Shown: piece by piece, positions 3,348-36,496 of the stretch
How the letters are laid out: every line of letters begins with the position of its first letter
Numbering within the stretch: position 1 is the stretch's first letter
Assembly: GCA_964637575.1 (NCBI GenBank)
Contig: CAZWVU010000001.1
Span: 53,009-117,008, forward strand
Direction of reading: 5' to 3'
Length of the DNA: 64,000 bases
Origin: an uncultured Candidatus Saccharibacteria bacterium
Lineage (GTDB): Bacteria > Patescibacteriota > Minisyncoccia > UBA6257 > WO2-44-18
The notes under the pieces: model-generated
What the model was told of the DNA's origin: nothing
The model's input: the letters and a program-made list of their open reading frames with translations, nothing else
Database searches by the model: none
Program-made: the position numbers and the translations under genes

Positions 3348-3351
3348 ATGA

Positions 3352-17299: not shown

Positions 17300-17337
17300 A
17301 TCACCTCCGTGTATTTCTCAATGTGCGGAATTACTGT

Positions 17338-17376
17338 ACAAGAAAAAAAGAAAACTGGCAATTACATGCCAGTTTT
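17338..17376 (-). terminator. Intrinsic terminator overlapping the stop of the GHMP kinase gene
   Basis: 10-bp palindrome AAAACTGGCA / TGCCAGTTTT (17351-17360 / 17367-17376), loop ATTACA containing the stop codon, followed on the minus strand by CUUUUUUUCUUG. Confidence 0.5.
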
Positions 17377-21045: not shown

Positions 21046-21935
21046 TGTCTGATAATTTCTTTAATCTGATAGGGACGGAGATCGCGGGAGTCGTAATAAT
21101 TTCTCCATAAAAGTTCGGCGATGATTCCCAGCAAAGGGAACAGGGAAATCAGAATCAGGAAAATCCCGATCAGCACCGGCAGGATCATATTCAACCACAC
21201 TGCGAGCGCCAGAGAAGCCGCCGCCAGGGCCGCCACTCCCAATCCCAGTGCGCTGAAAAAAAGCATCGGCCGGGTGCGCGGCGCCAGAACCCGCACCATC
21301 AGCAAATCAGCGATCGCTTTGACGCCGGCGAGAAGATGATGTTTGGAAAGTCCCGATTTCCGTTCGTGGTGGGTTACTTCCACTTCGGTAATCCGGGCGC
21401 CGCGGAGAAACAGCTGGGCCGCCAGAAATACATGCTGAACTCCGGCAAGGTGTATCCCGTCCAGCCAGGATTTCCGGTAGACCTTCAGGGCGCAGGCATG
21501 GTCGTGCAGGTTCAATCCGCTGATTTTTCTTGTCAGCCAGTTGGCCATCCGCGAATGGAAACGCCGGCCGAAACTGTCGTGCCGGTCCCGGCGCCATCCG
21601 GCCACCACGTCATATCCCTCGCGCGCTTTCGCCATCATCGCGGGAATGTCGCGCGGATCGTTCTGGAGATCGCCGTCCATAATCACCACCCACTCTCCCT
21701 TGGCCGCCTTGATGCCGGCATCGAGTGCCAGTGTCTGACCGAAATTCTTCGGCAGGACGACAATGGTAACCGGGTGAAGCGTCTTCAAAATTTCCAGCGT
21801 GGCGTCGGTGGAACCGTTATCCACGACAATAATTTCGTACGGCTCCCCCATCGCGTCCAGGGTTTCCTTATTCAGGCGGTGCAATTCCTTCACATTGCCC
21901 TCTTCGTTATAGGTGGGAAAAATTACAGAAATCAT
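21042..21935 (-). CDS. GT2 polyprenyl-phosphate glycosyltransferase (DPM1/ArnC/GtrB-like) with C-terminal TM helices
   Basis: 297 aa; MISVIFPTYNEEGNV...IIVVDNGSTDAT...VVIMDGDLQNDP (DxD), two C-terminal TM segments. Confidence 0.7.
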   Translation of the reverse strand: MISVIFPTYNEEGNVKELHRLNKETLDAMGEPYEIIVVDNGSTDATLEILKTLHPVTIVVLPKNFGQTLALDAGIKAAKGEWVVIMDGDLQNDPRDIPAMMAKAREGYDVVAGWRRDRHDSFGRRFHSRMANWLTRKISGLNLHDHACALKVYRKSWLDGIHLAGVQHVFLAAQLFLRGARITEVEVTHHERKSGLSKHHLLAGVKAIADLLMVRVLAPRTRPMLFFSALGLGVAALAAASLALAVWLNMILPVLIGIFLILISLFPLLGIIAELLWRNYYDSRDLRPYQIKEIIRQ

Positions 21936-21939: not shown

Positions 21940-23253
21940 TTATTTTACTATGGTATCCAGAAAATCGACATGCCGCTTATACGACATACCATCTTTCACC
22001 GGCATGAAGACGCTGCTCAATGCCGCCCGCTTATCGGCGTCGATTGCCGGATTTTTCAGGTACATGGCGATATAATCGAGACATTCAGCTTCGGTATAGG
22101 CCATGCGGACCGCCCCCGAACGGACAATCGGCTGGTAATGTTCGTAGGTGTAGTGCTTCAGGGTCGGCTGATCCGGCCAGGCAATGTTAATAACCGGCCT
22201 GTCCAGAACGACCCCGTCGATGGAAAGAGTTGAGGTGTAATTCACGTTTACATCCGAGTACAGAAAAGACGCCTTGAGATTAAGAAGGTCGGCTTCCGGA
22301 TTCTTCGGCGCGAATTCCTCCACATGCAGATCCGGCTCCTGCAGAAATTCCCGATATCGTTCGATTGAATCTTTGTAGTGCAGGCGGACGAAAAGATTCA
22401 CATACTCGATGCGCTTTTCCTTTCGTGCCCGCAGCAGCAGGCGGAGCACTTCATCGTGATGAGGATAGACGCCGTGCGAGGTGGTGCTGAAAAAAATCGT
22501 CTTGTATTTCGGATTCAATCCTTTGCTCTTCAAAAATGCGTCGCGGGAAATAAAGTCGGGATACTTCCGGAAATAAGGATCAAGGCGCATCATACCGGAC
22601 ACGAAAATCCGCTCCGCGGGATGCTGGTACAACCGCACCAATTCATCCTGAATAATGCCGTTCCAGACGATGAAATAATCCGGCCGGCGGAACACCTTGG
22701 TCTTGGTGGTCAGATTGTCCCAACTGGCATCAATTGCCGCCGTCGGTATCCCCGCTTTTCGGCCGAACGCGATCGCTTCGGCATCGAGGTTGCTGATGCC
22801 GGGCGTCGCGGTGAGGATCGCCGCGGGCTGGTACTCCTCAGCGTAGCGCCGGAATGCCGCGTATGATGCGCGGGGCAACAGAAGACGTTCAAGAAAAAAA
22901 ATAGCGTCCACTGAAGTAAGGGGGCCGGCCCAGGCGGCAAGTTTCATGATAATTTTTCGGGGAAGCGTGGTGGCGGCTTTTTCCTTTTTAAACCGCTGGA
23001 CGCGCAGCCTATCGAATTGTCTCACCAGAAGCGCCCTCACCCGCTTGGCCATATCCCAAAAACGCGCGTTTTGCACGCGCCAGGGAATATAGATGATTCG
23101 CGGCGACTTCAGGAATCCTTTGTCGGATTCAAGAAGCTCGCTTCGCACAAAGGCGACGACGCGATACCGATCGCTGAGATACTTCGCGTAATCGCCCCGC
23201 AGAAGATCCAGCGCATAAATTTCCTTGGATAAAAATAAAAATACGGTTTTCAT
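21940..23253 (-). CDS. Unassigned GT-B-like paralog family member (437 aa, SWDNLT motif)
   Basis: GIPTAAIDASWDNLTTKTKVF, collinear with the 7591 and 33077 proteins. Confidence 0.5.
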   Translation of the reverse strand: MKTVFLFLSKEIYALDLLRGDYAKYLSDRYRVVAFVRSELLESDKGFLKSPRIIYIPWRVQNARFWDMAKRVRALLVRQFDRLRVQRFKKEKAATTLPRKIIMKLAAWAGPLTSVDAIFFLERLLLPRASYAAFRRYAEEYQPAAILTATPGISNLDAEAIAFGRKAGIPTAAIDASWDNLTTKTKVFRRPDYFIVWNGIIQDELVRLYQHPAERIFVSGMMRLDPYFRKYPDFISRDAFLKSKGLNPKYKTIFFSTTSHGVYPHHDEVLRLLLRARKEKRIEYVNLFVRLHYKDSIERYREFLQEPDLHVEEFAPKNPEADLLNLKASFLYSDVNVNYTSTLSIDGVVLDRPVINIAWPDQPTLKHYTYEHYQPIVRSGAVRMAYTEAECLDYIAMYLKNPAIDADKRAALSSVFMPVKDGMSYKRHVDFLDTIVK

Positions 23254-24065
23254 TATGGACGTTCCAAAATCGGAAATTTCTTCAGACGCTCCTCTTTATG
23301 CGCAAGAAATTCAGCAATCATGCCACTCTTGAACCGTTCCTGCATCCGCAAGATGGATTCCGGCGTAAGGTCTTTTGACCGGCAGAGTTTTCCCGGCACG
23401 GAGCGGTCCTGCGCTTCCGGCGCGATCCGGCCCTGATCGTAGAGGATCAGGCAGCGCCTGAGAAGCTCTGCCCCCGCCATCACCGTCTTGCAGTTAATAT
23501 CGTAGACAGTATCCGATTTCTTCATTTCCGGACGGACCTGGCCGAGCACGGCCCCCGCATCCACTTTCAGGATCGCCAGATGCACGGTCACGCCGACGCA
23601 TTCCGGCTCCCCGTTCACCAGCGGCCAGAAATTAGTGCCCGCGCCGCGGTAGTAAGGAGAAAGCCCGAGATGCATATTGATAATCCTGTTTTCAAAGGCC
23701 GTGAGCAGGGGGTCTTTAATAATGCTTGAACCGAATAAGAGAATGTACTTCGGCTTACGGGCAGTCACCCATTCATACACCTGTTGATCATTGGCGCCAC
23801 CCCAGGGAACTTCAAGGATATCTTCTTTCGCGATTCCATAATCCTTATACGCACCAAAATACGCCGATTCGGCTTCGGCCCGGTTTTTGTCATGCGCTTC
23901 AACTACGGCATTGGCGCCTGAATTCGGATCCTGAAACAGCGGTTTTTTCTTTTCCGTTACCACGCCCGCCACGCGGAAGGTTTCCCCAAGCTTCGTCACC
24001 ACATACCGATGGCGCGGGGCGTTGCCGGTAAATATAAGAACGGGTATTTTTTCCATGATGATCAT
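23253..24065 (-). CDS. Formyltransferase (N10-formyl-THF dependent, Fmt/PurN/ArnA-N fold), sugar N-formyltransferase candidate
   Basis: 270 aa; catalytic motif INMHLGLSPYYRGAGTNFWPLVNGE (N..H...LP..RG) and downstream KVDAGAVL Asp. Confidence 0.65.
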   Translation of the reverse strand: MIIMEKIPVLIFTGNAPRHRYVVTKLGETFRVAGVVTEKKKPLFQDPNSGANAVVEAHDKNRAEAESAYFGAYKDYGIAKEDILEVPWGGANDQQVYEWVTARKPKYILLFGSSIIKDPLLTAFENRIINMHLGLSPYYRGAGTNFWPLVNGEPECVGVTVHLAILKVDAGAVLGQVRPEMKKSDTVYDINCKTVMAGAELLRRCLILYDQGRIAPEAQDRSVPGKLCRSKDLTPESILRMQERFKSGMIAEFLAHKEERLKKFPILERP

Positions 24066-24793
24066 TATTTTTCCCGGAGTACGTAGACAACATTATAGCC
24101 GACCAGTTCCTTCGCGTTCTTTATATGCCTGAAAAGCGGCCAGCCGAGCAGGAGAAGTTTTTCCACCCAGGTCGCGCTCCGGAAAAATGCCGCGTCCCGA
24201 CGGAGAAAGTAATCCTTCCCGGCCAGGTCGAAATATTTAAGAAATGACTTTTCAAATACTCCTTTCGGAAACGCGCTGATGTGATTGTTTTTCGATTTAT
24301 AGCGCGGAAGATCCCCGTGGCGGAAGAATGTCCAACGGTGCTTGAAGGAAAAGATATTGGGCATGGAAACAAAAAAGAGGCCGCCCGGCTTTAGCACCCG
24401 CCTCACTTCGCGGAGAAGATTGTGGGGATTTTCCAGGTGCGGGAGAAGGCACCAGGCCGCCGCCGCGTCGAATGAAGCGTCCGGCCAGGGCAGTGGCTGG
24501 AGACTCAGATCGGCTGTTTTGAAATCATGAATTGCCTCTCTGCCGGCCGGTTGCCGGAAATCACCGATATCGGTGGCGGAAATACGGCCGAAACCCGCCG
24601 TTTTCAGCTGTTCCGCAAAGACGCCCCCCGCGGTGGCGAGATCCAGAACAGCCAGCCCCGACCGGTCGCCCGGATAGTAGTGCTCCACAAGGTCAATCGC
24701 GAACCGGGACTTCACCAGCCGGCCGGCCGAATAATCGGCCATCGCCTGATCGTACCGATCCGACTTCATCTCCTCTTTCGTAAGATATTTCAT
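24065..24793 (-). CDS. SAM-dependent methyltransferase (paralog group A)
   Basis: 242 aa; LDLATAGGVF motif I, FKTADLSLQPLPWPDASFDAAAAWCLLPHLENPHNLLREVRRVLKPGG shared with the 29505 and 32363 proteins. Confidence 0.6.
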   Translation of the reverse strand: MKYLTKEEMKSDRYDQAMADYSAGRLVKSRFAIDLVEHYYPGDRSGLAVLDLATAGGVFAEQLKTAGFGRISATDIGDFRQPAGREAIHDFKTADLSLQPLPWPDASFDAAAAWCLLPHLENPHNLLREVRRVLKPGGLFFVSMPNIFSFKHRWTFFRHGDLPRYKSKNNHISAFPKGVFEKSFLKYFDLAGKDYFLRRDAAFFRSATWVEKLLLLGWPLFRHIKNAKELVGYNVVYVLREK

Positions 24794-25503
24794 TTCTTCA
24801 TCTTAAGAAGGCAGCGGGCCAGCTCCAGGTCAAATACATCATTGATATCATGGGCGCTTGGCGAATCAACCGCAAAGCCCACCCGCTTTCCCGGCTCCAT
24901 CTTTTTTTCTTTCATAAAAGACTCGCGGCTAAACCAATAAATGCCCCCGAAGGCGTAACGCTTCGGATCGGACTGCCGCGTCGGATGGCTGTAGTGTTCC
25001 GCCGGATTATCATATTCCAGATATCCTTCGGATGTGACGTGCCGGACATGGTAGGGATGGAATATTCTCGGCACCTCCACCGTAGAAATGCCGGAGTCGG
25101 CTCCTTTTTCGCGCATAAGATCGAACACGGCGCGGATATGTTCAGGTTTTACAAAGGCGGAGGTAGGCTGGACTACTAATATATAGTCCGGGAGAAATGC
25201 CTCTTTCTCCTCAAGCCAGCGGACGGCATGATCGATGACCGGGGCGGTGGGCGTGGTATCCTGCGCCAGTTCAGCCGGACGGAGAAAGGGTGTTTCGGCG
25301 CCGTGCTTTCTCGCGGCTTCGGCAATGTCGGAATTGTCCGTGCTGACAAATATCCGGTCCACCAGGCCGCTTTTCCGGATCGCTTCGATGGAATAGGCGA
25401 TCAGAGGCCGGCCCTCAAGATCGATAATGTTTTTCCTTGGAATAGACTTGGAATTGCCCCGTGCGGGCACGATCGCTACGTTGTGAAGCTTGCGGGACAG
25501 CAT
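24790..25503 (-). CDS. CMP-sugar synthetase (acylneuraminate cytidylyltransferase family, NeuA/PseF/LegF-like)
   Basis: 237 aa; AIVPARGNSKSIPRKNI...LIAYSIEA...VSTDN CTP_transf_3 signature. Confidence 0.7.
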   Translation of the reverse strand: MLSRKLHNVAIVPARGNSKSIPRKNIIDLEGRPLIAYSIEAIRKSGLVDRIFVSTDNSDIAEAARKHGAETPFLRPAELAQDTTPTAPVIDHAVRWLEEKEAFLPDYILVVQPTSAFVKPEHIRAVFDLMREKGADSGISTVEVPRIFHPYHVRHVTSEGYLEYDNPAEHYSHPTRQSDPKRYAFGGIYWFSRESFMKEKKMEPGKRVGFAVDSPSAHDINDVFDLELARCLLKMKK

Positions 25504-25518
25504 AAAGTTACTACCATG

Positions 25519-26469
25519 CTATCGCGGATTGGAAGGATAGGCAATCTGATTAAGATAATCGCGCAGATGGTTCGTATCGTAACGCGGAATCATAAACGGA
25601 TCGTCTTCCACCCTGGCCGCCCGCGGTTCAATGGTTACCCCGTAATGGAACCCGGCGGCCTTCAGCAAGGGGAACATCTCGGGACGATAATGGCCGTGCG
25701 GATAGGAAAACACCTCCACAGGCCGGCCGACTATCCCGGCCAAATTTTTCTGCGAAAGCTCAAATTCCCGGCGCAAGGCGGCTTCGTCCAGGCCGCGAAG
25801 CGAATGGTGGGAGTGGGAGTGGCTGCCAATGGCCATTCCCCGGTCGGCCAGTTCCCGGATCTGTTCCCGGGTCAGAAAAAGCTGTGCCGCAATCTCTTTT
25901 TCATTTTGAAAATGACCGCGGAACGTGTCCGCGAGAAATTCCTCCCGGACACTGTTCGGTAAAAGCGCTATTACTTCCTTAAAATTCGCGGTCAGCGTCG
26001 TTTCGTACACCCGGGTCACGCTCATTTTCCGGTCGCGGGAAATCGGATACTTCCCGGCAAGGTCGGGGTGCCGGTCTTTTAAAAATTGTTCCAAAAGGCT
26101 CACGAGCTTCTCCGAAGGAATATTGGAAAGGAGAAAGTGGATTTTATGGGTCGCCGGCAGGACGCCCTCCAGCGTGGAACTTACCGGGAAAAACGTGGCG
26201 GTGGCGCGGTGGCGCATGAGCGCCGGCAGGGCGTACTGATAGTTATCCGCCAAACCGTCATCAAACGTAAGGGCGGAAAATACTCCCGCACGTTTCCCGC
26301 GCGCCGCTTCCAAAACTTCCGGAACCGAAACGATCCGCGAATGCTCCGACAAAAACCGCACCTGCCGTTCGAACTCGGCCACCGGGCAGGGATGAATTCC
26401 GGAATGGTCCGGACGCGGATCCTCCACGTAATGATAATTTACGACCAAATAACTGCCTAGGCTTTCCAT
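25519..26469 (-). CDS. Polysaccharide deacetylase (NodB-type carbohydrate esterase 4)
   Basis: 316 aa; TFDDG motif and downstream His-rich motifs (HSHSHH). Confidence 0.6.
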   Translation of the reverse strand: MESLGSYLVVNYHYVEDPRPDHSGIHPCPVAEFERQVRFLSEHSRIVSVPEVLEAARGKRAGVFSALTFDDGLADNYQYALPALMRHRATATFFPVSSTLEGVLPATHKIHFLLSNIPSEKLVSLLEQFLKDRHPDLAGKYPISRDRKMSVTRVYETTLTANFKEVIALLPNSVREEFLADTFRGHFQNEKEIAAQLFLTREQIRELADRGMAIGSHSHSHHSLRGLDEAALRREFELSQKNLAGIVGRPVEVFSYPHGHYRPEMFPLLKAAGFHYGVTIEPRAARVEDDPFMIPRYDTNHLRDYLNQIAYPSNPR

Positions 26470-27419
26470 ATTTTTTTCATCTCCGCAACCACTAATTCGC
26501 TGATATACGCCTGGGTTCGCCCGGTCGCTTCCCGCGTGGCGCCTCCGAGATGCGGGACAATGAGAAGATTCTGATGCTGCCTGGCGTACCGCACCAGAGG
26601 ATTGTTTTTCAGATGACTACCATCCGGCATCTCGCCCGCAAGCGTGTCCACCGCGGCGCCGGCAATCCATTTTTGCCGGAGTGCTTTGAGAAGCGCCCGC
26701 TCGTCGGTAATTTCACCCCGGGCCGTATTGATGAATACCGCCTCCGGCTTCATGAGCCGGAAATGTTGCTCCTGAATAAGCCGGTAGGTGCGGTCATTAT
26801 ATATAGTATGCAGGGAAACAATATCCGCCGTCCGCAGAAGCTGGCCAACGCTGACTTTACGCGCCCCGAATTTCTTCATCACGGCGGCGGAAACATATGG
26901 ATCGCAGGCGGTTACCGACATGCCGAATGCCCGACTGTAACCGGCGACCATTTTCCCCAAACGGCCAAAACCGATCAGGCCGATCGTTTTGCCGGCCAGC
27001 TCGCGTCCGCCGTATTTTTTCCTTTCCCACTCTCCCTTCTGAATCGACGAAAAGGCCCAAGGAATATTCCGGAGCAGGGCCAGCAATAACGCCATTGTTT
27101 CTTCGGCGGTGGATGGGGTATTCCGCAATACGGGAGAGTCCGCTTTGATATTCACCACAGCAATGCCCCGGCGGCGGCATTCGTCGAGGTCGAGATACCG
27201 CAGCTGGGTGGTCCGGCTGCCGATTACTTTCAGTTTCTTTGCCTTTTTCAAAAGCGCCGCATTGAATTTTATATCCAGCGCGGTGACCACCACACCGGCA
27301 GCCGGCAGGTGTTTCAAAAAATTCTTCCGGGAAGAAAAGTCCACGACCCTCCCCGCGGCGGATAGGATTTTTTTCGCATGCGCGTCGAATCCTTCTTCGG
27401 CAATAAGAATTGTAGGCAT
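26457..27419 (-). CDS. D-isomer-specific 2-hydroxyacid dehydrogenase (PGDH-like)
   Basis: 320 aa; GLIGFGRLGKMVAGYSRAFGMSV NAD motif, catalytic R/E/H region. Confidence 0.65.
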   Translation of the reverse strand: MPTILIAEEGFDAHAKKILSAAGRVVDFSSRKNFLKHLPAAGVVVTALDIKFNAALLKKAKKLKVIGSRTTQLRYLDLDECRRRGIAVVNIKADSPVLRNTPSTAEETMALLLALLRNIPWAFSSIQKGEWERKKYGGRELAGKTIGLIGFGRLGKMVAGYSRAFGMSVTACDPYVSAAVMKKFGARKVSVGQLLRTADIVSLHTIYNDRTYRLIQEQHFRLMKPEAVFINTARGEITDERALLKALRQKWIAGAAVDTLAGEMPDGSHLKNNPLVRYARQHQNLLIVPHLGGATREATGRTQAYISELVVAEMKKIWKA

Positions 27420-27477
27420 CTGGTTATGAGATTAACAAAGGTTGCCCGAACGCGCCAGTTATTTTATAATAAAGGCG

Positions 27478-28443
27478 ATGTTGAGCACCAAAACCATTCT
27501 TGTGACCGGCTGCGCGGGATTTATCGGATCGAATTTCGTTAAAAAATTCAGGCAGGATGTCCCGGCTATTACCGTAGTTGGAATCGACAATTTTTCCACG
27601 GGAAGAAGGGACGCGCTCGATAAAGGAATAGTTTTTTATGAAGGCTCGCTGCTGGACGCGCCGCTGCTGGAAAAAATATTTTCCTCACATGCGCCGGAAT
27701 ACGTGTTTCACTTCGCCGCCGTTCCCCGGGTATCCTATTCGGTGGAACATCCGCGCGACACCACCGAAAACAATATCACCGGCACCGTGGCGCTGCTGGA
27801 AGCCGCGAAAAATCACGGCGTGAAACGCGTAATCTATTCCGCCTCGTCTTCCGTCTATGGAGGAGCGGCGAAGCTGCCGACCAAGGAGTCAGAAAATGCG
27901 CCTGACCCGAAATCTCCCTACGGCCTGCAGAAATATGTCGGCGAAGTGTTTTGCAAAATATTCAGCGATCTTTATGGAATGGATACGGTTTCGCTCCGTT
28001 ATTTCAATGTGTTCGGGCCGGGACAATATGGCGACTCGCCATATGCGAGCGTTATTTCCGGCTGGCTGGACGGTCTTTTCTTTCCAAACGCCGGCCGGAA
28101 ACCTTTTCTGGAAGGCGACGGCGAACAATCCCGGGATTTTTGCTACATCGACAACGTGATCCAGGCGAACCTTTTGGCGATGCGGCATCCGCAACCGCTG
28201 AAAGGCCAGAGTTTTAATATCGCGTATGGCGGAAGAACCAGCGTCAACGAAGTGCGCCGGATGATTGAAGCGATGACCGGCAAAAGCCTGTCCCTTGAAG
28301 GGCGGCCGCCCCGGCCGGGCGACGTCAAACATTCTTATGCCGACATTTCCCGCGCCCGCGAAACACTCGGATACGATCCCCAAGTAAATTTCGAAGAAGG
28401 CCTGCGGCGCACCGTCGCCTGGTATCAGTCCCGAACGTCGTAA
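27478..28443 (+). CDS. NAD-dependent UDP-sugar 4-epimerase (GalE/WbpP-like)
   Basis: Start chosen at MLSTKTILVTGCAGFIGSNF (27478; the ORF track starts at 27442). YxxxK (YGLQKY) and SSSVYG present. Confidence 0.7.
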   Translation: MLSTKTILVTGCAGFIGSNFVKKFRQDVPAITVVGIDNFSTGRRDALDKGIVFYEGSLLDAPLLEKIFSSHAPEYVFHFAAVPRVSYSVEHPRDTTENNITGTVALLEAAKNHGVKRVIYSASSSVYGGAAKLPTKESENAPDPKSPYGLQKYVGEVFCKIFSDLYGMDTVSLRYFNVFGPGQYGDSPYASVISGWLDGLFFPNAGRKPFLEGDGEQSRDFCYIDNVIQANLLAMRHPQPLKGQSFNIAYGGRTSVNEVRRMIEAMTGKSLSLEGRPPRPGDVKHSYADISRARETLGYDPQVNFEEGLRRTVAWYQSRTS

Positions 28444-29486
28444 ATTTTTTTATACGATCGCGCCGCCTTTTCCCAGGACATCCCGTGCGCGAACACGACC
28501 GATTCCTTCGCAAAAGAAGCCTTTATTTTTTGGTCACGTAAAAGAATCCTCATCATCTCCGCCGCCGCGTTCGCGTCGCGCGCCGGCACAAGAAAACCGT
28601 TTTTCCCGTCATTGATCGCGTCTTCGGCGCCCGTGTCGCGCGTGCCGATCACCGGCAATCCGTTGGCCGCCGCCTCCAGAAAGACGAGGCCGAACCCTTC
28701 CAAATCCTTTCCGATATCCTGCGAAAGCAGCATAAAAAGCTCGGCATGCTGATACAGCGCGGCCAAAAAGTCCTGGGGAATATGCTCCAGAAAAATAATT
28801 CTGTTTTCCAATTTTAAATTCGAAATTTTAATTTTTAAATTTTGGTGTTCCGGCCCGCCGCCGACAATCACGTATTTCAAATCGGGAAATTCCCCGGCGA
28901 TTGCGGCAAATGCTTCTATTGAGTAATCAAATCCTTTCCGCTTCTTGAGCGATCCGACGCTCAATACAAACGGCTTCAGAGGATCGAGCTCCTTTTCATA
29001 TCCGGATACAATGTTCCGGAAACGGCTGACATCCACACCATGGTGGATCACTTCTATCGGCAGGCCGGGAATCACGGCAAGAATTTCCCGTTTCGTGTTA
29101 TTGCTTACCGCCACCACCCGATCCGCCCGACGGTAGGCCCACGCCATCAGCATTTTTTGGAACGGCCGGTGGAGCGGTTGAACCGCGCCGGTACCGATCG
29201 CGGTAATAATCAGCTTTTTCTTCAAGCCGATCGAGGCGAGCGCCGCCACGACACCGTAAGGCCAGCCGTCCAGCGCATGGATGACATCGCACTGCTTCAT
29301 TATTCTCCGGATCGCTGGCAGGGCGAGCAATAATTTCAATTTGTTCGGAAAGATAAGATTCTCCGAAGTCAGGATGTCAAATTCCACCCCGGGAATTACC
29401 CGCTCCACCGCCCGGGAGAAATCGTTGAAAAACCGGCCGGCGCCGGTATTAGTCCGGGTGTCGTGGTTAAGATAACAGATGCGCAT
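28425..29486 (-). CDS. GT4 (family 1) glycosyltransferase
   Basis: 353 aa; EGFGLVFLEAAANGLPVIGT EX7E-type motif. Confidence 0.7.
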   Translation of the reverse strand: MRICYLNHDTRTNTGAGRFFNDFSRAVERVIPGVEFDILTSENLIFPNKLKLLLALPAIRRIMKQCDVIHALDGWPYGVVAALASIGLKKKLIITAIGTGAVQPLHRPFQKMLMAWAYRRADRVVAVSNNTKREILAVIPGLPIEVIHHGVDVSRFRNIVSGYEKELDPLKPFVLSVGSLKKRKGFDYSIEAFAAIAGEFPDLKYVIVGGGPEHQNLKIKISNLKLENRIIFLEHIPQDFLAALYQHAELFMLLSQDIGKDLEGFGLVFLEAAANGLPVIGTRDTGAEDAINDGKNGFLVPARDANAAAEMMRILLRDQKIKASFAKESVVFAHGMSWEKAARSYKKIYDVRD

Positions 29487-29504
29487 TACTTAAACCTACC
29501 TCAA

Positions 29505-30281
29505 CTAATCGTTGTCTGTCATCTTGGAGGGTCCTGCTACCGCGGCCTTCTTTTTCAAGACGTAGACAATTTTCGGCCCCCACCGCTGATCGAGTTTTTC
29601 TTTCAGGAAAGGATGCCGGCCGGCAATCCCATAAAGAACTTTACGGATCGCCCCCTTCATGCCTTCGAAAATTCTCGGATTGATAAAATATTCCGTGCCG
29701 ATGCAATCGAAATACCGCAGAACGGTTTTTGTAAAGATCGCGGGTGTCAGAATGGCAATGTGATTATTGCGCTCGTGGTAACCGGGCAGATCGCCGTGCA
29801 TGCGAAAATAATTCCGGTGAGAAGGCGAGGTGATATTAATCGCCGAATAGATAAGCAGGCCATTTGGTTTGAGAACCCGGTGCGCTTCCCGGATAAAATT
29901 GTGCGGATTCTCCAGGTGCGGCACCACACACCAGGCGGTGATCAGGTTAAAAAAATTATCGGTCCACGGCAATTTTTCATAGCTCAAATCCGCGGTCTTA
30001 AATTCCTTCGCAATTTTTTTCGCTTCCGGCTGAAGATAGTCATCAATGTCCACGCCGTACAAGTTATGGAACCCCGCCTCTTTCAGATCAAAAAAGAATT
30101 TTCCGCTCGCGGTTCCACAGTCCAACACGTTCAATTCCGCCGGCGCAAGATTCTCCCGCGCCATCCATTTCTTCACCACGTCAATACTAAACCCGTGCCT
30201 CACGGCCGGACCCACAAACTCCCTGTTGCGCGCTTTTACTGACTGACTGTCTTTAATTTCTTCCGGCCGGAAATAATCCAT
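29505..30281 (-). CDS. SAM-dependent methyltransferase (paralog group A)
   Basis: 258 aa; FKTADLSYEKLPWTDNFFNLITAWCVVPHLENPHNFIREAHRVLKPNG. Confidence 0.6.
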   Translation of the reverse strand: MDYFRPEEIKDSQSVKARNREFVGPAVRHGFSIDVVKKWMARENLAPAELNVLDCGTASGKFFFDLKEAGFHNLYGVDIDDYLQPEAKKIAKEFKTADLSYEKLPWTDNFFNLITAWCVVPHLENPHNFIREAHRVLKPNGLLIYSAINITSPSHRNYFRMHGDLPGYHERNNHIAILTPAIFTKTVLRYFDCIGTEYFINPRIFEGMKGAIRKVLYGIAGRHPFLKEKLDQRWGPKIVYVLKKKAAVAGPSKMTDND

Positions 30282-31064
30282 TTAGGTATTTAAAATGTAA
30301 AAATTTTTAAACAATTCCACCACCAACACCGGGCCGGTACCCCCAGGAGTCGGCGTGTAAAAACCGAGAGCGTCCAGCCCGGAACTTTGGGTGTCGAGGT
30401 CGCCGGAGATTTTCCCGTTGACCATATCGAACCCGAAATCGATCACCCCAGCCCCCGGCTTCAGCATTCCCGGCTTCAGCAAGCCGGCTTTACCGGCGCC
30501 GGCAATCACAAGGTCGCAATCCTTAATTCTCGAAAAATCGGTTTTGGTGTGAAAAATGATCACCTCCCGGCATTGATTATAAAGCCATTTCGCAACCGGA
30601 TCGCCGACCAGCAATCCGCGGCCGACCACGCCGACAACTTTCTCTTTAATGTCCACTTTCGCTTCGGCCAGCACATCCTTCACCACTTCCACCGCCAGCG
30701 CAGAAACCGGCGACTCCGCCGTCAGCGCGTCCACATCCTTTTTCGGGAAAATGGCCGCGAGAATTTTCCCGCGGTTGAACTTTTCCGGCAAAGGCAGCTG
30801 AACCAGAATGCCGCCAATTTCTTTATCGACGCCCAGATGCGTGATCTCGGCAATCAATTCGGCCTGGGAAATATCCGCCGACAGGGTAATCAGCCGGAAC
30901 TCCACGCCAAGCTCTTCGGCGATTTTCCTTTTCTGCTTGAGAAAGCTCTCGGAGGCAGCGCTTTCGCCGACAAACACCGCGGCCAGCGCCTTGGTGGGCT
31001 TGGGCAGTTTCTTCAATTGCTCAATTATTTTCCGGGCAATAGATTTTCCATCGATAACAATCAT
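30282..31064 (-). CDS. folD: Bifunctional methylene-THF dehydrogenase / methenyl-THF cyclohydrolase
   Basis: 260 aa; MIVIDGKSIARKI...LAAVFVGESAASESF; overall FolD layout. Confidence 0.65.
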   Translation of the reverse strand: MIVIDGKSIARKIIEQLKKLPKPTKALAAVFVGESAASESFLKQKRKIAEELGVEFRLITLSADISQAELIAEITHLGVDKEIGGILVQLPLPEKFNRGKILAAIFPKKDVDALTAESPVSALAVEVVKDVLAEAKVDIKEKVVGVVGRGLLVGDPVAKWLYNQCREVIIFHTKTDFSRIKDCDLVIAGAGKAGLLKPGMLKPGAGVIDFGFDMVNGKISGDLDTQSSGLDALGFYTPTPGGTGPVLVVELFKNFYILNT

Positions 31065-31113
31065 GAAAAATTTTAAAGTTTAAATTTGAAATTTAAAATA
31101 AATGATTAAATTC

Positions 31114-32325
31114 TTAATAAGGCAGGGGAAATTTTTTGGCCAGCGCCGTAACTTCCTTCCGGACAAATTCCTTTTTCACAAGCGCCCGCTGGATCAATCC
31201 GGCGATTGTTTTCATCTGCGGTTCTTTCATCCCGCGGGTGGTGACCGCCGGAACGCCGATGCGGATGCCGGAAGGCTTGAAAGGGCTCTGATCGCCCGGG
31301 ATGGTGTTGCGGTTCGCAGTGATCCCGTTTTTCTCGAGCAGCTGCTCCGCGGTCATACCGTCCAGATTGACGCTCCGCATGTCGGCCAGCATTAAATGAT
31401 TGTCGGTTCCGCCGGTGACAAGCGTGAAGCCCAGGCGGACCAGTTCGGCCGCGAGCACCTTGGCATTTTTCAAAATCTGCTGCTGATATTTTTTAAAACC
31501 CGGCAGAGCCGCTTCAAAAAACATCAGCGCTTTGGCCGCGGTGAGATTATTATGCGGGCCTCCCTGCATGCCCGGAAATACCGCTTTATCGATCGCCTCC
31601 GCCAGGTTTATTTTTGAGAAGATTGCGGCGCCGCGCGGTCCGCGCAGTGTTTTATGAGTCGTCATCATCACCGCGTCGCTGTGGAGAAACGGGGATACGT
31701 GCACGCCGGCCAGCACCAGCCCGGCAATATGGGAGATGTCGGCGACATGATACGCACCGACGGAGTGGGCGATTTCGCCGAAGCGGCGGAAATTAATTTC
31801 CCGGGGATAGGCAGTGAGGCCGGAAACGATCACTTTTGGCCTGTGTTCTTTCGCAAGTTTTTCGATTTCGCCGTAATCCAGAAGTCCCGTCCGCTCATCA
31901 ACGCCGTAATGAATTACCTTATACGCCTTACCGGAAAAATTCACTTTGTGTCCGTGGGTGAGATGGCCGCCGGAAGAAAGCTTCAAGCCCATCAGCGTAT
32001 CGCCGAAATTCATGAGGGCCGCGTAGATGGCAATATTCGCCGGCGATCCGGAATAGGGCTGGACGTTCACCGCCCACTCCTCCGGTTTCAGATCGAACGC
32101 TTCCAGGCCGCGTTTCTTCGCGAGATTTTCAATTTGATCATAGTATTCATTGCCCGGGTAATATCGCCTGCCCGGATACCCCTCGGAATACTTATTGGTA
32201 AGCGGCGAGCCGATCACGGAAAGCATGTCTTGGGAAACATAATTCTCCGACGCGATCAGGTCGATGGTTTCTTTTTGCCGCTTGGTCTCCTCTTGTATTA
32301 AACGCCCGAGAATTTTATCTTTCAT
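31114..32325 (-). CDS. glyA: Serine hydroxymethyltransferase
   Basis: 403 aa; DLIASENYVSQDMLSVIGSPLTNKYSEGYPGRRYY, PLP-Lys region HKTLRGPRG. Confidence 0.85.
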   Translation of the reverse strand: MKDKILGRLIQEETKRQKETIDLIASENYVSQDMLSVIGSPLTNKYSEGYPGRRYYPGNEYYDQIENLAKKRGLEAFDLKPEEWAVNVQPYSGSPANIAIYAALMNFGDTLMGLKLSSGGHLTHGHKVNFSGKAYKVIHYGVDERTGLLDYGEIEKLAKEHRPKVIVSGLTAYPREINFRRFGEIAHSVGAYHVADISHIAGLVLAGVHVSPFLHSDAVMMTTHKTLRGPRGAAIFSKINLAEAIDKAVFPGMQGGPHNNLTAAKALMFFEAALPGFKKYQQQILKNAKVLAAELVRLGFTLVTGGTDNHLMLADMRSVNLDGMTAEQLLEKNGITANRNTIPGDQSPFKPSGIRIGVPAVTTRGMKEPQMKTIAGLIQRALVKKEFVRKEVTALAKKFPLPY

Positions 32326-32362: not shown

Positions 32363-33106
32363 ATGCGCTATTTTACCACTGAAGAATTAAAGGAGAACAA
32401 CCGTGACGAGGTGGCGCGCGTCCTCAAGGATTGCGTGGGAAAAAACGTCCGCTACAACCTCGCGTTTGAACTTATTGAAGACTACGCGAAACGCGCCCCG
32501 GCGCCGCAGGAGGTAACAATTCTGGACCTCGGAGTGGCGAGCGGGTATTTTTTAAAACAACTGCACAAGAAGGGGTACCGGAATCTTTTTGCCCATGACA
32601 TCGATGAATACCTGCCGCCGGAAACAAAAAAATTATTCCGGGAGTTCAAAACCGCGGAACTGAACACGGAGAAGCTTCCCTGGCCGGATAATTCCTTTGA
32701 TTTTGTCACCGCCTGGTGCGTCCTGCCGCACCTGGAAAATCCCTTCCATGCCGCCCGCGAGGCGCACCGCGTATTAAAACCAGGCGGCATCTTTCTTTTC
32801 AGCGCGCCCCATCTGACCTCCCGGGGCAGTATCGATTTTTTTCTGAAATACGGATATTTCGCAGGATACCGGGAAACCAACAATCACATCGCGATGCTGC
32901 CGCCCAGCATTGTTAAAAAAACGCTGTCCAAATATTTTACCGTGCTCGACCTGCAATATCTGGTGGTGCCGAAAATTTTCGCCGGCCTCAAGGGCCGCAT
33001 CCGGGAAGCATTATATGGATTTTCAAAACGTTTTCCCAGGTTTCGAACGTACCTGGGAAAACGCTGGGGTTATAACCTAATTTATATCCTGCAAAAACCG
33101 CAGTAA
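32363..33106 (+). CDS. SAM-dependent methyltransferase (paralog group A)
   Basis: 247 aa; FKTAELNTEKLPWPDNSFDFVTAWCVLPHLENPFHAAREAHRVLKPGG. Confidence 0.6.
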   Translation: MRYFTTEELKENNRDEVARVLKDCVGKNVRYNLAFELIEDYAKRAPAPQEVTILDLGVASGYFLKQLHKKGYRNLFAHDIDEYLPPETKKLFREFKTAELNTEKLPWPDNSFDFVTAWCVLPHLENPFHAAREAHRVLKPGGIFLFSAPHLTSRGSIDFFLKYGYFAGYRETNNHIAMLPPSIVKKTLSKYFTVLDLQYLVVPKIFAGLKGRIREALYGFSKRFPRFRTYLGKRWGYNLIYILQKPQ

Positions 33107-34444
33107 TTCGGAAGCAAGCCGCTGGCTGGAGTTTCCGTCAGTTTTATAACAAATCTGCTCAAGCGTTTTCTCCCGCTGCTCATTGTTCCGCGTCGGATCA
33201 TTGGCGTATGCCCCAATCGATTCAATCAGATCGTCTTCATTGGACGCCACGTGGCAACCGCCCCCGCGCGTCAGTGGCTGAAGATGTTCGAGGTCTAAAA
33301 ATTTCCGGATCCCGCCAAAACCGATCAGGATCACCGGTTTTTTAAAAAGCAGGGCGTCCACCGCGATGGTCGACGGGCCCGGCAACACCACGTCGCTGTG
33401 GGCAAGCGAGTTGATAAGATGCCGGTCGGCTTCGGAGTTCAGCTCTCCTTTTCCAAAAAGTTTTGCCGGCCGGTCAAACGCCATATTGGCAGGCGGGACA
33501 AAATTCCCCAGATCAACTTCGCCGATCAGCGGAAAACGTACCAGCACCTGAAATATTCGCGGGTCCAGCCGGCGCAGTAGTTCCAAAATCCGGCGGTTGT
33601 ATTCCTCATGACGCCCGGAAAACTGCTTATGGAGAAACATATCCGCGACGGCAACAAAAAGAATGGTTTTTTTGCCTGGATCAAGGCCGGCGCTCCGGAA
33701 AAATTCCGCGCGGGAATCGGTCCGGGTATTCAGGTATTTGTCATAGTGGGGAATTCCCACCACCACGACATCCCGCGCTGGAATGTGGTTATAGACCCGG
33801 CACTCTTCTTTGATCACCTCATTCCACACCGCGATCCGATCCGGCACCTCCCGGATAACTCCGCGGGTGGTCAGGTTGTCCCAGGAACGGACCATTCCGA
33901 TCACCGGAATCCCGTTCTTTTTCGCCTCCCGAATCAGATCAATGTCGCTGTCGCCGCTGCTCCGGTCGGTAATATCCGTCGAAAATACCAGCGCCGGTTT
34001 ATAGCGTTCGAAATAAATCCGGAATCTGTCGGACGGCAGGGTGTTCCGGTCCAGCCAGCGCACGAACAGGATTGCCGGCTTCCAACCCGCGCAGACGCCG
34101 GTCACGACCCGGCTGCCATAGTAACTGAATGCGGAAAGAACATTGCGGAAATTAGTGCGCATTTTCAAAAACATCCGGCTGGTATTGGTATTGATCAGAA
34201 GCCGCGACAGGGCGCCGATCAGAATTTTCCGCCGGCTCAACGGCGCCACCGGTACGCCTTCAATAATCACTTTTGCCGAGGAAAAATTCTTTTCCAGATA
34301 TTCCCTTTCCTTTTCCGGAGCGAGGATCACGACGCGCACGTTATCCGGACGCGTGACCATGTTCAGGAAATCCGTGTCCAGAAGATTGCGGACAACAAAG
34401 TTGGTAAAGGCCGTTATGAAAACGGTTTTCTGTTCCTGATTCAT
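33077..34444 (-). CDS. Unassigned GT-B-like paralog family member (455 aa, SWDNLT motif)
   Basis: GIPVIGMVRSWDNLTTRGVI; start overlaps (ATGA-type, 4 nt) the stop of the upstream CMP-sugar synthetase gene. Confidence 0.5.
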   Translation of the reverse strand: MNQEQKTVFITAFTNFVVRNLLDTDFLNMVTRPDNVRVVILAPEKEREYLEKNFSSAKVIIEGVPVAPLSRRKILIGALSRLLINTNTSRMFLKMRTNFRNVLSAFSYYGSRVVTGVCAGWKPAILFVRWLDRNTLPSDRFRIYFERYKPALVFSTDITDRSSGDSDIDLIREAKKNGIPVIGMVRSWDNLTTRGVIREVPDRIAVWNEVIKEECRVYNHIPARDVVVVGIPHYDKYLNTRTDSRAEFFRSAGLDPGKKTILFVAVADMFLHKQFSGRHEEYNRRILELLRRLDPRIFQVLVRFPLIGEVDLGNFVPPANMAFDRPAKLFGKGELNSEADRHLINSLAHSDVVLPGPSTIAVDALLFKKPVILIGFGGIRKFLDLEHLQPLTRGGGCHVASNEDDLIESIGAYANDPTRNNEQREKTLEQICYKTDGNSSQRLASELLRFLQDIN

Positions 34445-36461: not shown

Positions 36462-36496
36462 GCCAATAAAAAATCCCGGACACCTCCGGGATTTTA
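36462..36496 (-). terminator. Intrinsic terminator after the UDP-GlcNAc 2-epimerase gene
   Basis: Perfect palindrome ATCCCGGA / TCCGGGAT (36473-36480 / 36485-36492), extendable by A:T pairs, loop CACC, U-run on the minus strand. Confidence 0.65.

Follow-up and report, generated by a model that had tools for sequence, protein, structure and literature searches.

Does a glyA-folD pair that lies inside a surface-glycan island supply formyl groups to a sugar N-formyltransferase encoded nearby? The question is raised by the core of a ~45-kb surface-glycan island from an ultra-small bacterium of the Patescibacteria (CPR), contained in the 64-kb stretch of DNA that was analysed (the window). An earlier annotation, made from the letters alone (the sequence-only reading), had described here a formyltransferase (FT), glyA, folD, a cytidylyltransferase, GT-B-like paralogs, and three paralogous plus two distant methyltransferases (MTs), and we found all of these genes in the places given for them.

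Layout of the island

The genes of the region studied are as follows.

19207-21045, minus strand: 612-aa polytopic membrane protein, ~10 TM segments and a C-terminal soluble domain by hydropathy
21042-21935, minus strand: GT2 polyprenyl-phosphate glycosyltransferase, ArnC-like (top PDB matches ArnC)
21940-23253, minus strand: GT-B-like transferase paralog 2 (PF04464; weak TagF/BFO_1060-type similarity)
23253-24065, minus strand: FT, stand-alone N10-formyl-THF-dependent N-formyltransferase, 270 aa (PF00551 only)
24065-24793, minus strand: SAM methyltransferase paralog A, MT-A (PF08241)
24790-25503, minus strand: CMP-sugar synthetase (cytidylyltransferase), PseF/NeuA-like (PF02348)
25519-26469, minus strand: NodB-family (polysaccharide) deacetylase (PF01522)
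26457-27419, minus strand: D-2-hydroxyacid dehydrogenase, phosphoglycerate-dehydrogenase-like (PGDH-like; PF02826)
27442-28443, plus strand: NAD-dependent sugar epimerase, TviC/GalE-like (PF01370), convergent with the GT4 gene
28425-29486, minus strand: GT4 glycosyltransferase (PF00534), closing the glyA-folD-MT-GT4 unit
29505-30281, minus strand: SAM methyltransferase paralog B, MT-B (PF08241)
30282-31064, minus strand: folD, short Patescibacteria-type methylene-THF dehydrogenase/methenyl-THF cyclohydrolase, 260 aa (PF00763 and PF02882)
31114-32325, minus strand: glyA, serine hydroxymethyltransferase (SHMT), 403 aa (PF00464, 513.8 bits)
32363-33106, plus strand: SAM methyltransferase paralog C, MT-C (PF08241), divergent from glyA across a 37-bp spacer
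33077-34444, minus strand: GT-B-like transferase paralog 3 (PF04464, weak)
34441-35166, minus strand: second CMP-sugar synthetase, PseF/NeuA-like (PF02348)
35236-36393, minus strand: UDP-sulfoquinovose-synthase-like SDR, 385 aa, a conserved nonulosonic-acid (NulO) module member (NF041015)
36494-37657, minus strand: NeuC-type hydrolysing UDP-GlcNAc 2-epimerase, entry step of a NulO pathway (TIGR03568; PF02350)

From the cytidylyltransferase through MT-A and the FT to the GT-B-like gene, each gene either abuts the next or shares 1-4 nt with it, which bears out the earlier claim that they form an operon; the GT-B-like gene (21940-23253) is the last of the four, and the PGDH-like dehydrogenase is the first gene of the FT operon. 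These operon calls draw on gene spacing and on weak matches to promoter consensus sequences (18, with 13.7 expected). Positions 513-7643 encode AMP-binding enzymes and a PPTase, and also contain an ORF of 83 aa that is a candidate carrier. Those island genes that were scanned with Pfam include no aminotransferase.

The formyltransferase and its deacetylase partner

The FT carries the motif N130-M-H132-LGLSPYYRG together with D169, and every position is invariant across 53 homologs. The N..H..LP..RG pattern reported before holds for N130, H132 and RG, whereas its 'LP' reads 'LSP'. With this Asn/His/Asp triad and without a tRNA-binding domain, the protein is a stand-alone enzyme of the N10-formyl-THF type. 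Its top NCBIfam match is the ArnA model (56 bits, cut-off 777), and ArnA is also its joint-best PDB sequence match. The structure comparison that had been suggested for assigning it to the sugar N-formyltransferases did not do so: the FT was no closer to them than to the catalytic cores of Fmt or ArnA.

FT and deacetylase are coupled. We counted neighbourhoods of 38 FT-centred loci, each of at least 5 kb, and a NodB deacetylase homolog was present in 35, in most cases as an immediate neighbour on the same strand and with a gap of <100 nt; fusions occur in both orders (deacetylase::FT and FT::deacetylase; proteins P0387 and P0389). Two loci with an FT (L015 and L018) gave no deacetylase match. 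The deacetylase of the window, which the sequence-only reading had overlooked, keeps the TFDDG and HSHSHH metal-site motifs. A NodB-type deacetylase is thus a near-obligate partner of the FT, and the pair usually belongs to NeuC/NeuB/cytidylyltransferase clusters: CTP_transf_3 was found in 19 of the 38 loci, Epimerase_2 in 18 and NeuB in 17. The NeuC-type epimerase of the window scored 294 bits against TIGR03568, over the cut-off of 235.9. We propose that the NodB deacetylase is the de-N-acetylase of an activated sugar; with the FT it would probably replace an acetyl group of a sialic-acid-like sugar with a formyl group.

Related products have been reported. The CMP-NulOs made by Ca. Kuenenia stuttgartiensis bear a single free amine, a single formylated amine and +14 Da/O-methylation, and the NulO cluster of this bacterium includes a deacetylase and a formyltransferase (2026 preprint, bioRxiv 10.64898/2026.04.20.719630); Halorubrum makes 5-N-formyl-legionaminic acid and has a leg cluster with a predicted FT gene (PMC6137143). 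Of the two N-formylated, methylated products predicted earlier, an amino sugar or a NulO, the NulO agrees with the Kuenenia preprint and with the presence of the FT family in NulO clusters, but no NeuB-type synthase was found in the 64-kb window.

Methyltransferases and other island genes

MT-A, MT-B and MT-C are 35-46% identical and share the motif FKTA[DE]L..LPW.D..F...AWC..PHLENP. With two more distant MTs at 18410-19210 and 41267-41899 they make five MTs in total, as had been described. MT-C orthologs occupy the same position in three loci (L009, L010 and L170), and O-methylation of the sugar is proposed for MT-A. The idea that the one-carbon supply is wired to these MTs is not supported: GlyA and FolD do not feed SAM-dependent methyltransferases, no link from the folate enzymes to SAM methylation was found, and MetF, MetH and MetK are absent from the window.

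The two cytidylyltransferases are 45% identical to each other and scored 154.5 bits (24790-25503) and 159.6 bits (34441-35166) against TIGR03584 (PseF), under its cut-off of 205.7. The PGDH-like dehydrogenase, with 226 bits against TIGR01327 (cut-off 454), has orthologs beside cytidylyltransferases in L001, L003, L012 and L015. Matches of the epimerase (27442-28443) to NCBIfam TviC and GalE stayed under their cut-offs, and its orthologs in L005, L010 and L014 are 69-71% identical; GT4 orthologs (49-68% identical) lie downstream of folD in L005, L007, L010 and L014. The UDP-sulfoquinovose-synthase-like SDR matched NF041015 over its full length (436 bits, cut-off 575) and has orthologs that are 61-65% identical in L001, L009 and L010. 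GT-B-like paralogs 2 and 3 scored 54.8 and 63 bits against NF046086 (cut-off 200). Orthologs of paralog 3 are present in L009 and L010 (51-52% identical), and a gene of the GT-B-like family comes immediately after the FT in L015, L018 and L096 and stands before it in L001, L090 and L093; paralog 2 is our proposed transferase for the CMP-activated sugar. The 612-aa membrane protein has no match in Pfam or NCBIfam, has homologs in L010, L017, L018, L088 and L096, and is possibly a GT-C-type transferase.

Proposed pathway

We propose, with a probability of roughly 0.6, that the operon running from 27419 to 19207 modifies a CMP-activated NulO-type sugar and that the neighbouring glyA-folD unit supplies the formyl group. 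The cytidylyltransferase (24790-25503) would activate the sugar, the NodB deacetylase (25519-26469) would remove its N-acetyl group, the FT (23253-24065) would transfer formyl from N10-formyl-THF to the freed amine, MT-A would then add a methyl group, and the GT-B-like enzyme (21940-23253) would transfer the sugar. On the folate side, SHMT would pass C3 of serine to THF, giving glycine and 5,10-methylene-THF, which FolD would oxidise and hydrolyse to N10-formyl-THF; the FT would return free THF and close the serine-to-formyl cycle. In this scheme glyA and folD would be co-transcribed with island genes. The gene identities, the coupling of FT and deacetylase and the recurrent linkage of FT with SHMT/FolD are observed; we infer the substrate, the sequence of the steps and the co-regulation.

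Type, origin and linkage of the glyA-folD pair

The SHMT scored 518 bits against NF000586 (cut-off 335), its PLP-lysine motif TTHKTLRGPRG is legible in the DNA, and glyA is 67-73% identical to the folD-adjacent glyA of related Patescibacteria loci. For FolD, PF00763 and PF02882 both exceeded their cut-offs, and the NCBIfam FolD equivalogs gave only 164 bits (cut-offs 333-559). The protein retains K45, Q89 and D110/D112, has Phe in place of the Tyr of YxxxK, and lacks the loop after KDVD; it has the clade-invariant SxSFLKQK and FYTPTPGGT and a length of ~260 aa. About 80% of CPR genomes have glyA and folD (PMC11974145), and glyA lies directly upstream of folD (gap <400 nt) in 30 of 74 loci with sufficient upstream sequence. 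As claimed before, folD and glyA are embedded in the island a few kb from the FT, with folD 6.2 kb away in a neighbouring transcription unit.

This position may be meaningless for the FT. The glyA-folD pair could be the sole housekeeping pair, serving fMet-tRNA and thymidylate, with variable glycan genes accreted around it. We consider this possible, though clearly less probable than formyl supply by the pair. In its favour, the short FolD is of the ordinary Patescibacteria type: the best 80 genome matches are all from Patescibacteria (CPR), 72 of them have no island genes nearby, and only two of the eight island-type loci have an FT within 10 kb. In more distant genomes the same type occurs in housekeeping contexts, adjoining RecA, MreB, aaRS or CofD-like genes (L016, L027, L036 and L068). 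Across contigs matched by length, FolD identity appears to follow ClpB identity (FolD/ClpB pairs 87/71, 81/60 and 72/55), and MAGs related to the window have one FolD locus each among the best 80 loci. Folate genes are also generally missing from FT loci: FolD was found in none and SHMT in one of the 38 FT-centred loci, leaving 37 with neither; most FT loci outside the window's lineage have no folD or glyA in reach, and both are absent from L001 and L088 too.

Against chance placement, FT-SHMT/FolD linkage recurs elsewhere in independent operons and fusions, with the folate enzymes adjacent or fused to FT or glycan genes in varied arrangements. Two FolD types are involved: the orders glyA-folD-FT-transferase (L018), folD-x-FT (L015) and glyA-deacetylase-FT (L100) belong to the CPR type, and an operon next to NeuB (L169) reads [5-formyl-THF cyclo-ligase (MTHFS)::FT]-deacetylase-SHMT-canonical FolD. 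In one MAG, FolD and GT4 are fused in a single ORF (FolD::GT4, L021). In the window the folD stop codon abuts the MT-B start codon, and the folD-MT adjacency is kept, within a syntenic glyA-folD-MT-GT4 block, in at least five loci (L005, L007, L009, L010 and L170).

Judged by the FolD type and its housekeeping contexts elsewhere, the genes look like the lineage's ordinary Patescibacteria-type pair set in an island rather than a special paralog, and a dedicated separate FolD/GlyA copy, as first suggested, is unsupported. The pair is probably the lineage's own, vertically inherited, and used for fMet as well. The formyl-donor route is backed by the recurrent linkage and weakened by the 37 FT loci without folD or glyA. 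Overall, the earlier interpretation is partly supported.

Alternative roles of the formyltransferase

The formylation could also be transient, as in the Arn pathway: the FT would act on a nucleotide amino sugar, the ArnC-like GT2 would move it to polyprenyl phosphate, the NodB protein would act as deformylase, and the 612-aa protein would transfer the free-amine sugar outside the cell, leaving a final glycan with an amine and no formyl. ArnD is a member of the NodB fold family and acts as a deformylase. ArnC is the best PDB and NCBIfam match of the GT2 (21042-21935; full length, E 3e-41), and ArnA is the best NCBIfam and joint-best PDB match of the FT. The window and L088 (FT-GT2-MT-606-aa) share the collinear order FT, GT2, polytopic membrane protein, GT2 and a homolog of the 612-aa protein (unk612) lie upstream of the FT in L096, and a free amine is also found on the Kuenenia NulOs (bioRxiv 10.64898/2026.04.20.719630). 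However, the equivalog cut-offs are widely missed (152 bits vs 529 for ArnC, NF007986; 56 vs 777 for ArnA), the NodB protein has no ArnD match in NCBIfam, and an ArnB-type aminotransferase and the ArnA decarboxylase domain are absent. Most FT loci pair deacetylase-FT with NeuB/NeuC/cytidylyltransferase genes, GT2 being present in 3 of the 38 and the 612-aa protein in one, and the deacetylase::FT fusions are easier to reconcile with two successive reactions on a single soluble substrate than with steps split by lipid transfer. We hold an Arn-like role to be improbable.

Still less credit is due to the suggestion that the FT formylates an amino-acyl group on or from the island's carrier-protein module, like the LgrA F domain, to give an N-formyl-aminoacyl decoration. 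The AMP-binding enzymes, PPTase and candidate carrier ORF of the window fit it, and the FT adjoins AMP-binding, PPTase or GNAT-like genes in L015 and L096, but 16 kb separate the module from the FT, Pfam gave no match for the 83-aa ORF, and the family is generally partnered by the NodB deacetylase, with a PPTase in 1 of 38 loci. That the FT serves the cell as methionyl-tRNA formyltransferase (Fmt), a check raised by the sequence-only reading, can practically be dismissed: the 270-aa protein lacks PF02911 and the OB-fold C-terminal tRNA-binding domain and is therefore not Fmt, scores 44 bits against TIGR00460 (cut-off 201.5), aligns over only ~200 core residues, and invariably sits among glycan genes with its NodB partner.

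Comparison with known systems

The FT shares its catalytic core fold, Asn/His/Asp triad and N10-formyl-THF donor with the ArnA N-domain, WbkC, WlaRD, FdtF, VioF and PseJ. Like the characterised sugar N-formyltransferases, it is a stand-alone protein (~240-300 aa in that group) sited in a glycan cluster, but it is only 15-27% identical to them and misses every NCBIfam equivalog cut-off. Their amine is made by an aminotransferase on a UDP-, dTDP- or GDP-sugar, whereas the window family is coupled, sometimes fused, to a deacetylase among CMP-sugar enzymes. We know of no characterised sugar N-formyltransferase cluster that contains glyA or folD.

Like the Arn system of polymyxin resistance (ArnA-FT, ArnC, ArnD, ArnT), the window brings an FT and a NodB-fold enzyme together with a GT2-type polyprenyl-phosphate transferase and a large, polytopic membrane protein. 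It differs in missing the ArnB aminotransferase, the UDP-GlcA decarboxylase domain and the equivalog cut-offs, and the deacetylase-FT pair usually occurs without GT2. To our knowledge, lipid A is not known from CPR cells.

The window FolD resembles that of housekeeping Patescibacteria glyA-folD pairs in both motifs and length, but in the window and its nearest relatives glycan genes flank the pair and, judged by spacing, are transcriptionally joined to it, besides the GT4 fusion in one MAG.

The Kuenenia cluster (bioRxiv 10.64898/2026.04.20.719630) differs in having LegB/LegC (dehydratase, aminotransferase) and NeuB, none of which is in the window, and in having no reported folate enzymes; the FTs are likened by description. 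In both, NulO genes (cytidylyltransferase, NeuB/NeuC-like) accompany a formyltransferase and a deacetylase of the NodB type, and the free amine, formylated amine and O-methylation reported for Kuenenia are the three modification types that the window operon could encode with its deacetylase, FT and MT beside a cytidylyltransferase.

The formyltransferase lies in a glycan-biosynthesis island

Pfam and NCBIfam scans of the window showed a glycan-biosynthesis island of about 45 kb (roughly 500-46,000), nearly all on the minus strand, with ClpB, HtrA, cysteine desulfurase, phosphoglucomutase and FtsK genes beyond it. The sequence-only reading had described a formyltransferase (FT), folD, glyA and three paralogous SAM methyltransferases (MT-A, MT-B and MT-C) here. 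This gene content and the paralogy were confirmed, and 23253-32325 was found to open exactly where the FT gene ends and to close where glyA starts. In unit B, neighbouring genes abut or overlap by 1-4 nt, and in unit A the start codon of MT-B directly follows the stop codon of folD.

Genes of units A and B and the epimerase between them
31114-32325, unit A, glyA (serine hydroxymethyltransferase, SHMT)
30282-31064, unit A, folD
29505-30281, unit A, methyltransferase MT-B
28425-29486, unit A, GT4 glycosyltransferase
27442-28443, plus strand, epimerase, convergent, between the units
26457-27419, unit B, PGDH-like dehydrogenase
25519-26469, unit B, NodB deacetylase
24790-25503, unit B, cytidylyltransferase
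24065-24793, unit B, methyltransferase MT-A
23253-24065, unit B, FT
21940-23253, unit B, GT-B-like transferase
21042-21935, unit B, ArnC-like GT2
19207-21045, unit B, 612-aa membrane protein
18410-19210, unit B, distant methyltransferase

On the upstream side of glyA, divergent MT-C comes first, followed by a third GT-B-like paralog, a second cytidylyltransferase, an SQD1-like SDR, a NeuC-type epimerase and a Wzx-like flippase. Operon boundaries were inferred from gene spacing and weak promoter matches; the promoter and terminator scan of the window gave a count barely above shuffled expectation and serves as weak support. The Rfam scan of the window gave zero matches.

Several other features were observed. 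A heptose-like nucleotide-sugar module (8948-18360, minus strand) encodes a GmhA-like SIS isomerase, a transaldolase, an NTP-transferase, an HddA-like GHMP kinase, several SDR and GFO oxidoreductases and a NUDIX protein. It also encodes a B12-binding radical SAM enzyme; the NCBIfam families closest to this enzyme are P-methyltransferases (152 bits versus a cut-off of 575). At the island border, a 1253-aa protein (46124-49885, minus strand) has an N-terminal peptidoglycan-binding domain as its sole domain, and a giant homolog stands at the island border of the related locus L021. Two ORFs with a 4-nt overlap make up the phosphoglucomutase/phosphomannomutase (58806-60112, minus strand): 59696-60112 encodes domain I, and 58806-59699 encodes domains II-IV. 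The split reflects a frameshift or misassembly, or else the gene is genuinely divided.

The FT belongs to a subfamily of its own

The FT is a 270-aa protein with Formyl_trans_N as its single Pfam domain, and the catalytic core fold of this domain was found to be present. Residues N130, H132 and D169 match the ArnA triad region and are invariant in 53 aligned homologs, and AlphaFold models the protein with high confidence (pLDDT 94.6). Methionyl-tRNA formyltransferase (Fmt), the competing identity that the sequence-only reading had named, was rejected, because Pfam found no PF02911 and thus no tRNA-binding OB-fold C-domain, the C-terminal 65 residues are helical in the model, and the TIGR00460 (Fmt) score is 44.4 bits against a cut-off of 201.5. 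The FT scored 24.8 bits with the dTDP-Qui4N formyltransferase model NF005755 (cut-off 238) and 55.6 bits with the ArnA model NF005998 (cut-off 777). Judged by sequence, it belongs to a subfamily separate from the curated sugar formyltransferases of the WlaRD/FdtF/VioF/WbkC/PseJ type; structural comparison with characterised sugar formyltransferases, which had been proposed for placing it, assigns it no place among them by structure alone. The family comprises 145 clusters (50% identity) at E ≤ 1e-30, and glycan and nonulosonic acid (NulO) genes surround it in nearly all loci. From gene context, its predicted substrate is the amino group of a nucleotide-activated sugar.

The FT and a NodB deacetylase form one functional unit

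We surveyed 80 FT-centred metagenome loci and counted homologs of the window genes in the 38 that were at least 5 kb long. The NodB deacetylase was present in 35/38, the cytidylyltransferase in 19/38, a NeuC-like epimerase in 18/38, NeuB in 17/38 and the GT-B-like transferase in 13/38. The deacetylase mostly adjoins the FT on the same strand with a gap below 100 nt, and the two are fused in both orders, as deacetylase::FT in the representative protein P0387 (612 aa) and as FT::deacetylase in P0389 (481 aa). It was not detected in the FT loci L015 and L018. The NodB metal-site motifs, TFDDG and HSHSHH, are intact in the window deacetylase. Based on the co-occurrence, the same-strand adjacency, the fusions in both directions and the kept metal-site motifs, we consider the FT and the deacetylase to be one functional unit.

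The most economical chemistry would be removal of an N-acetyl group and then formylation of the amine so freed, and this fits the Pfam scan, which turned up no aminotransferase in the island genes that it covered. The NodB-coupled FT subfamily points to an exchange of N-acetyl for N-formyl (or free amine) on activated sialic-acid-like sugars.

The island carries predicted nonulosonic acid genes

The NeuC-type hydrolysing 2-epimerase (36494-37657) scored 294 bits with TIGR03568, above the cut-off of 235.9, and the two PF02348 cytidylyltransferases of the window, candidate CMP-NulO synthetases, scored 154.5 and 159.6 bits with TIGR03584 (PseF; cut-off 205.7). A search of the window for a NeuB-type synthase gave no tblastn match to a NeuB homolog at E 1e-3 and no PF03102 in the scanned ORFs; the source contig (170.7 kb) extends past the window. 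NeuB was found in the related loci L001, L003, L005, L007 and L018.

The neighbouring UDP-sulfoquinovose-synthase (SQD1/Agl3)-like enzyme (35236-36393, minus strand) matched NF041015 over its full length with 436 bits (cut-off 575). It recurs with the NeuC/NeuB/cytidylyltransferase module in L001 (2687-3844), L113, L132 and L169 (14367-16972), and in L169 the neighbouring cytidylyltransferase is itself fused to a PAPS-reductase domain, a would-be sulfite source. This suggests a sulfonated (C-SO3) nonulosonic acid precursor; we know of no report of such a sugar.

The glyA-folD pair is the clade's own

FolD contains both Pfam domains (PF00763, 98.8 bits; PF02882, 90.7 bits), and K45, Q89 and D110/D112 are invariant in its clade. 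SHMT scored 518 bits with NF000586, above the cut-off of 335, and carries the PLP-lysine motif TTHKTLRGPRG. The best NCBIfam score of FolD was 164 bits versus cut-offs of 333-559. FolD has an invariant Phe where YxxxK has its Tyr and is missing the loop that follows KDVD, and this holds across the whole Patescibacteria FolD clade, which therefore falls far below every NCBIfam FolD cut-off, so that equivalog-based naming would not assign FolD. A special island paralog is ruled out, since the whole clade has the same features.

A genome scan found 172 FolD relatives with these features, and the best 80 of the 172 are all from Patescibacteria MAGs, the top match being 71% identical. Exact sequence look-up found the window FolD in Logan sample SRR8931233, at the same locus, and gave no contig for the FT. 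Among the loci of these best 80, glyA was found in 56, and it lies directly upstream of folD (gap below 400 nt) in 30 of the 74 with enough upstream sequence. FolD neighbours in L016, L027, L036 and L068 include RecA, MreB, aminoacyl-tRNA synthetase, M50 protease or CofD-like genes. The window ClpB is 72-91% identical to ClpB of Patescibacteria, Parcubacteria and Harrisonbacteria, and ClpB and FolD identities appear to fall together (87/71, 81/60 and 72/55, on contigs paired by length). Across 4,581 CPR (Patescibacteria) genomes, glyA occurs in 81% and folD in 80% (PMC11974145). The shared FolD features, the housekeeping contexts, the identity trend and the CPR-wide occurrence indicate that the window glyA-folD is the clade's own, vertically inherited pair. 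Related MAGs have one FolD locus each among the best 80 of the 172, weakly favouring a single shared pair. The MAG JAUYHP01 has two: in the island locus L021 FolD is fused to GT4, and in L027 (4039-4833) it lies in a housekeeping context near M50 protease, aaRS and MreB. The two are sisters in a neighbour-joining tree.

Folate enzymes are repeatedly joined to the FT and glycan genes

The glyA-folD pair sits in the same island in its closest relatives, whose FolD is 54% or more identical. L009, L010 and L170 share the syntenic order Wzx-NeuC-SQD1-like-cytidylyltransferase-GT-B-MT-glyA-folD-MT-GT4, and L005 has it in part. Folate genes are also joined to FT or glycan genes in more distinct arrangements.

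Arrangements of folate genes in homologous loci
L018, glyA-folD-FT-transferase
L015, AMP-ligase-folD-x-FT-transferase
L100, transferase-glyA-deacetylase-FT
L169, 8001-12430, 5-formyl-THF cyclo-ligase::FT fusion-NodB deacetylase-SHMT (417 aa)-FolD (279 aa), tightly packed
L021 (MAG JAUYHP01), 9920-11911, 663-aa ORF of short-type FolD fused to GT4, glyA upstream

The L169 operon, on a contig of 36% GC, has NeuB, cytidylyltransferase and B12-radical SAM genes as neighbours, and its FolD is of the canonical type, 36% identical to the window FolD. In L021, a 1215-aa PG-binding protein like that at 46124-49885 also lies upstream of FolD::GT4.

Together, FT, SHMT and FolD would close a cofactor cycle from THF through CH2-THF and 10-CHO-THF back to THF. 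Incidental placement of glyA-folD in the island is the main rival and appears rather unlikely. In its favour, SHMT was found in one and FolD in none of the 38 FT loci, and 72 of the best 80 FolD loci (of 172) are without island genes; on the other side, the repeated joining arrangements and the closed cofactor cycle led us to regard the FT and SHMT/FolD as functionally linked. The proposal that the FT is wired to a glyA/folD supply thus stands for the functional link, through the arrangements in L018, L015, L100, L169 and L021, and falls for methyl groups. The idea of a dedicated second glyA-folD copy in this genome is not adopted.

The three methyltransferase paralogs are 35-46% identical and carry the motif FKTA[DE]L..LPW.D..F...AWC..PHLENP. 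Feeding of these enzymes by the folate pair was rejected, because they belong to the ordinary class-I SAM type, because GlyA and FolD lead to formyl and not methyl, and because MetF, MetH and MetK are absent from the window. The folD-MT adjacency is conserved across loci and probably reflects co-expression in the glycan pathway, not methyl supply. A serine supply in the window (PGDH-like protein with SerC and SerB) was likewise rejected, since the class-V aminotransferase encoded at 56218-57438 is a cysteine desulfurase of the NifS/IscS type and no family matched the HAD protein. In the tabulated CPR MAGs, serA/B/C are absent (PMC11974145).

Alternative roles of the FT

Formylation of a carrier-protein-linked substrate by the FT is very improbable. 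The island contains a module (513-7643, minus strand) with AMP-binding, PPTase and candidate-carrier genes, and such a module adjoins the FT in L015.

Genes of the carrier module (minus strand) and between them
513-2234, AMP-binding protein
2312-3280, 2-dehydropantoate-reductase-family protein, between carrier genes
3352-4356, PEP-mutase/isocitrate-lyase-superfamily protein, between carrier genes
4424-5473, 349-aa protein, sub-threshold GNAT (PF00583), no NCBIfam match
5529-5780, 83-aa ORF, LDS motif, no Pfam match
5758-7251, AMP-binding protein
7248-7643, PPTase

The module is partly conserved in L015, L088 and L096.

An Arn-like logic (Arn, the polymyxin-resistance pathway), in which the FT would act with the ArnC-like GT2 and the polytopic membrane protein, is improbable. 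In its favour, ArnC is the best PDB match of the GT2 (21042-21935; E 3e-41, full length), the next gene encodes a 612-aa protein of about 10 TM segments that matches no known family, L088 has a similar trio, and in L096 a GT2 and a membrane-protein homolog lie near the FT. Against it, the GT2 is present in 3/38 FT loci, most deacetylase-FT pairs are without it, the deacetylase-FT fusion argues for consecutive soluble steps, the NCBIfam models of ArnC and ArnA gave 152 bits versus 529 and 56 versus 777 with no match for ArnD and ArnT, and the scanned island genes lack the aminotransferase. The 612-aa protein (19207-21045, minus strand; compare L088 10834-14304 and L096 918-4431) has a soluble C-terminal domain besides its TM segments. 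It matched none of the Pfam or NCBIfam families and is a candidate for a new Patescibacteria transferase of the GT-C type.

A proposed formyl supply for nonulosonic acids

The earlier idea was partly right: the island holds a deacetylase-coupled sugar FT module co-localised with the Patescibacteria's own formyl-THF-generating enzymes. A more far-reaching reading, to which we give a probability of roughly 0.35, is that in a clade of Patescibacteria the retained glyA-folD pair was drawn into the island as a formyl supply for deacetylase/FT acyl exchange on CMP-activated NulOs. If true, the fusions deacetylase::FT, 5-formyl-THF cyclo-ligase::FT and FolD::GT4 mark an undescribed 'serine to N-formyl sugar' unit, and glycan formylation is one reason why minimal genomes keep glyA and folD. 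The result is open to direct enzymology with between two and four recombinant enzymes together with serine, NADP+, THF and a CMP-NulO. It also gives a genomic marker by which formylated or cationic surface sugars may be predicted for uncultivated bacteria.

Both sugar N-formyltransferases and N-formyl nonulosonic acids have been described before. Apparently new are the large FT subfamily with its NodB deacetylase partner, to which it is in some cases fused; the repeated joining of SHMT, FolD and 5-formyl-THF cyclo-ligase to this module; and its occurrence in minimal Patescibacteria genomes, about 80% of which keep glyA and folD (PMC11974145). Our literature search found, among the papers covered, no report of folD/glyA in a glycan cluster with an FT, nor of NulO pathways in CPR. 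N-formyl-legionaminic acid has been described in Halorubrum, whose cluster contains a gene predicted to encode an FT (PMC6137143). Direct precedent comes from a 2026 preprint on Ca. Kuenenia: one amine of its CMP-NulOs is free, another is formylated, and the mass is raised by 14 Da. Its leg-type cluster has a deacetylase and a formyltransferase, and the authors place these steps at the CMP-sugar level (bioRxiv 10.64898/2026.04.20.719630). These activities are matched by the deacetylase-cytidylyltransferase-MT-FT-transferase order of the window.
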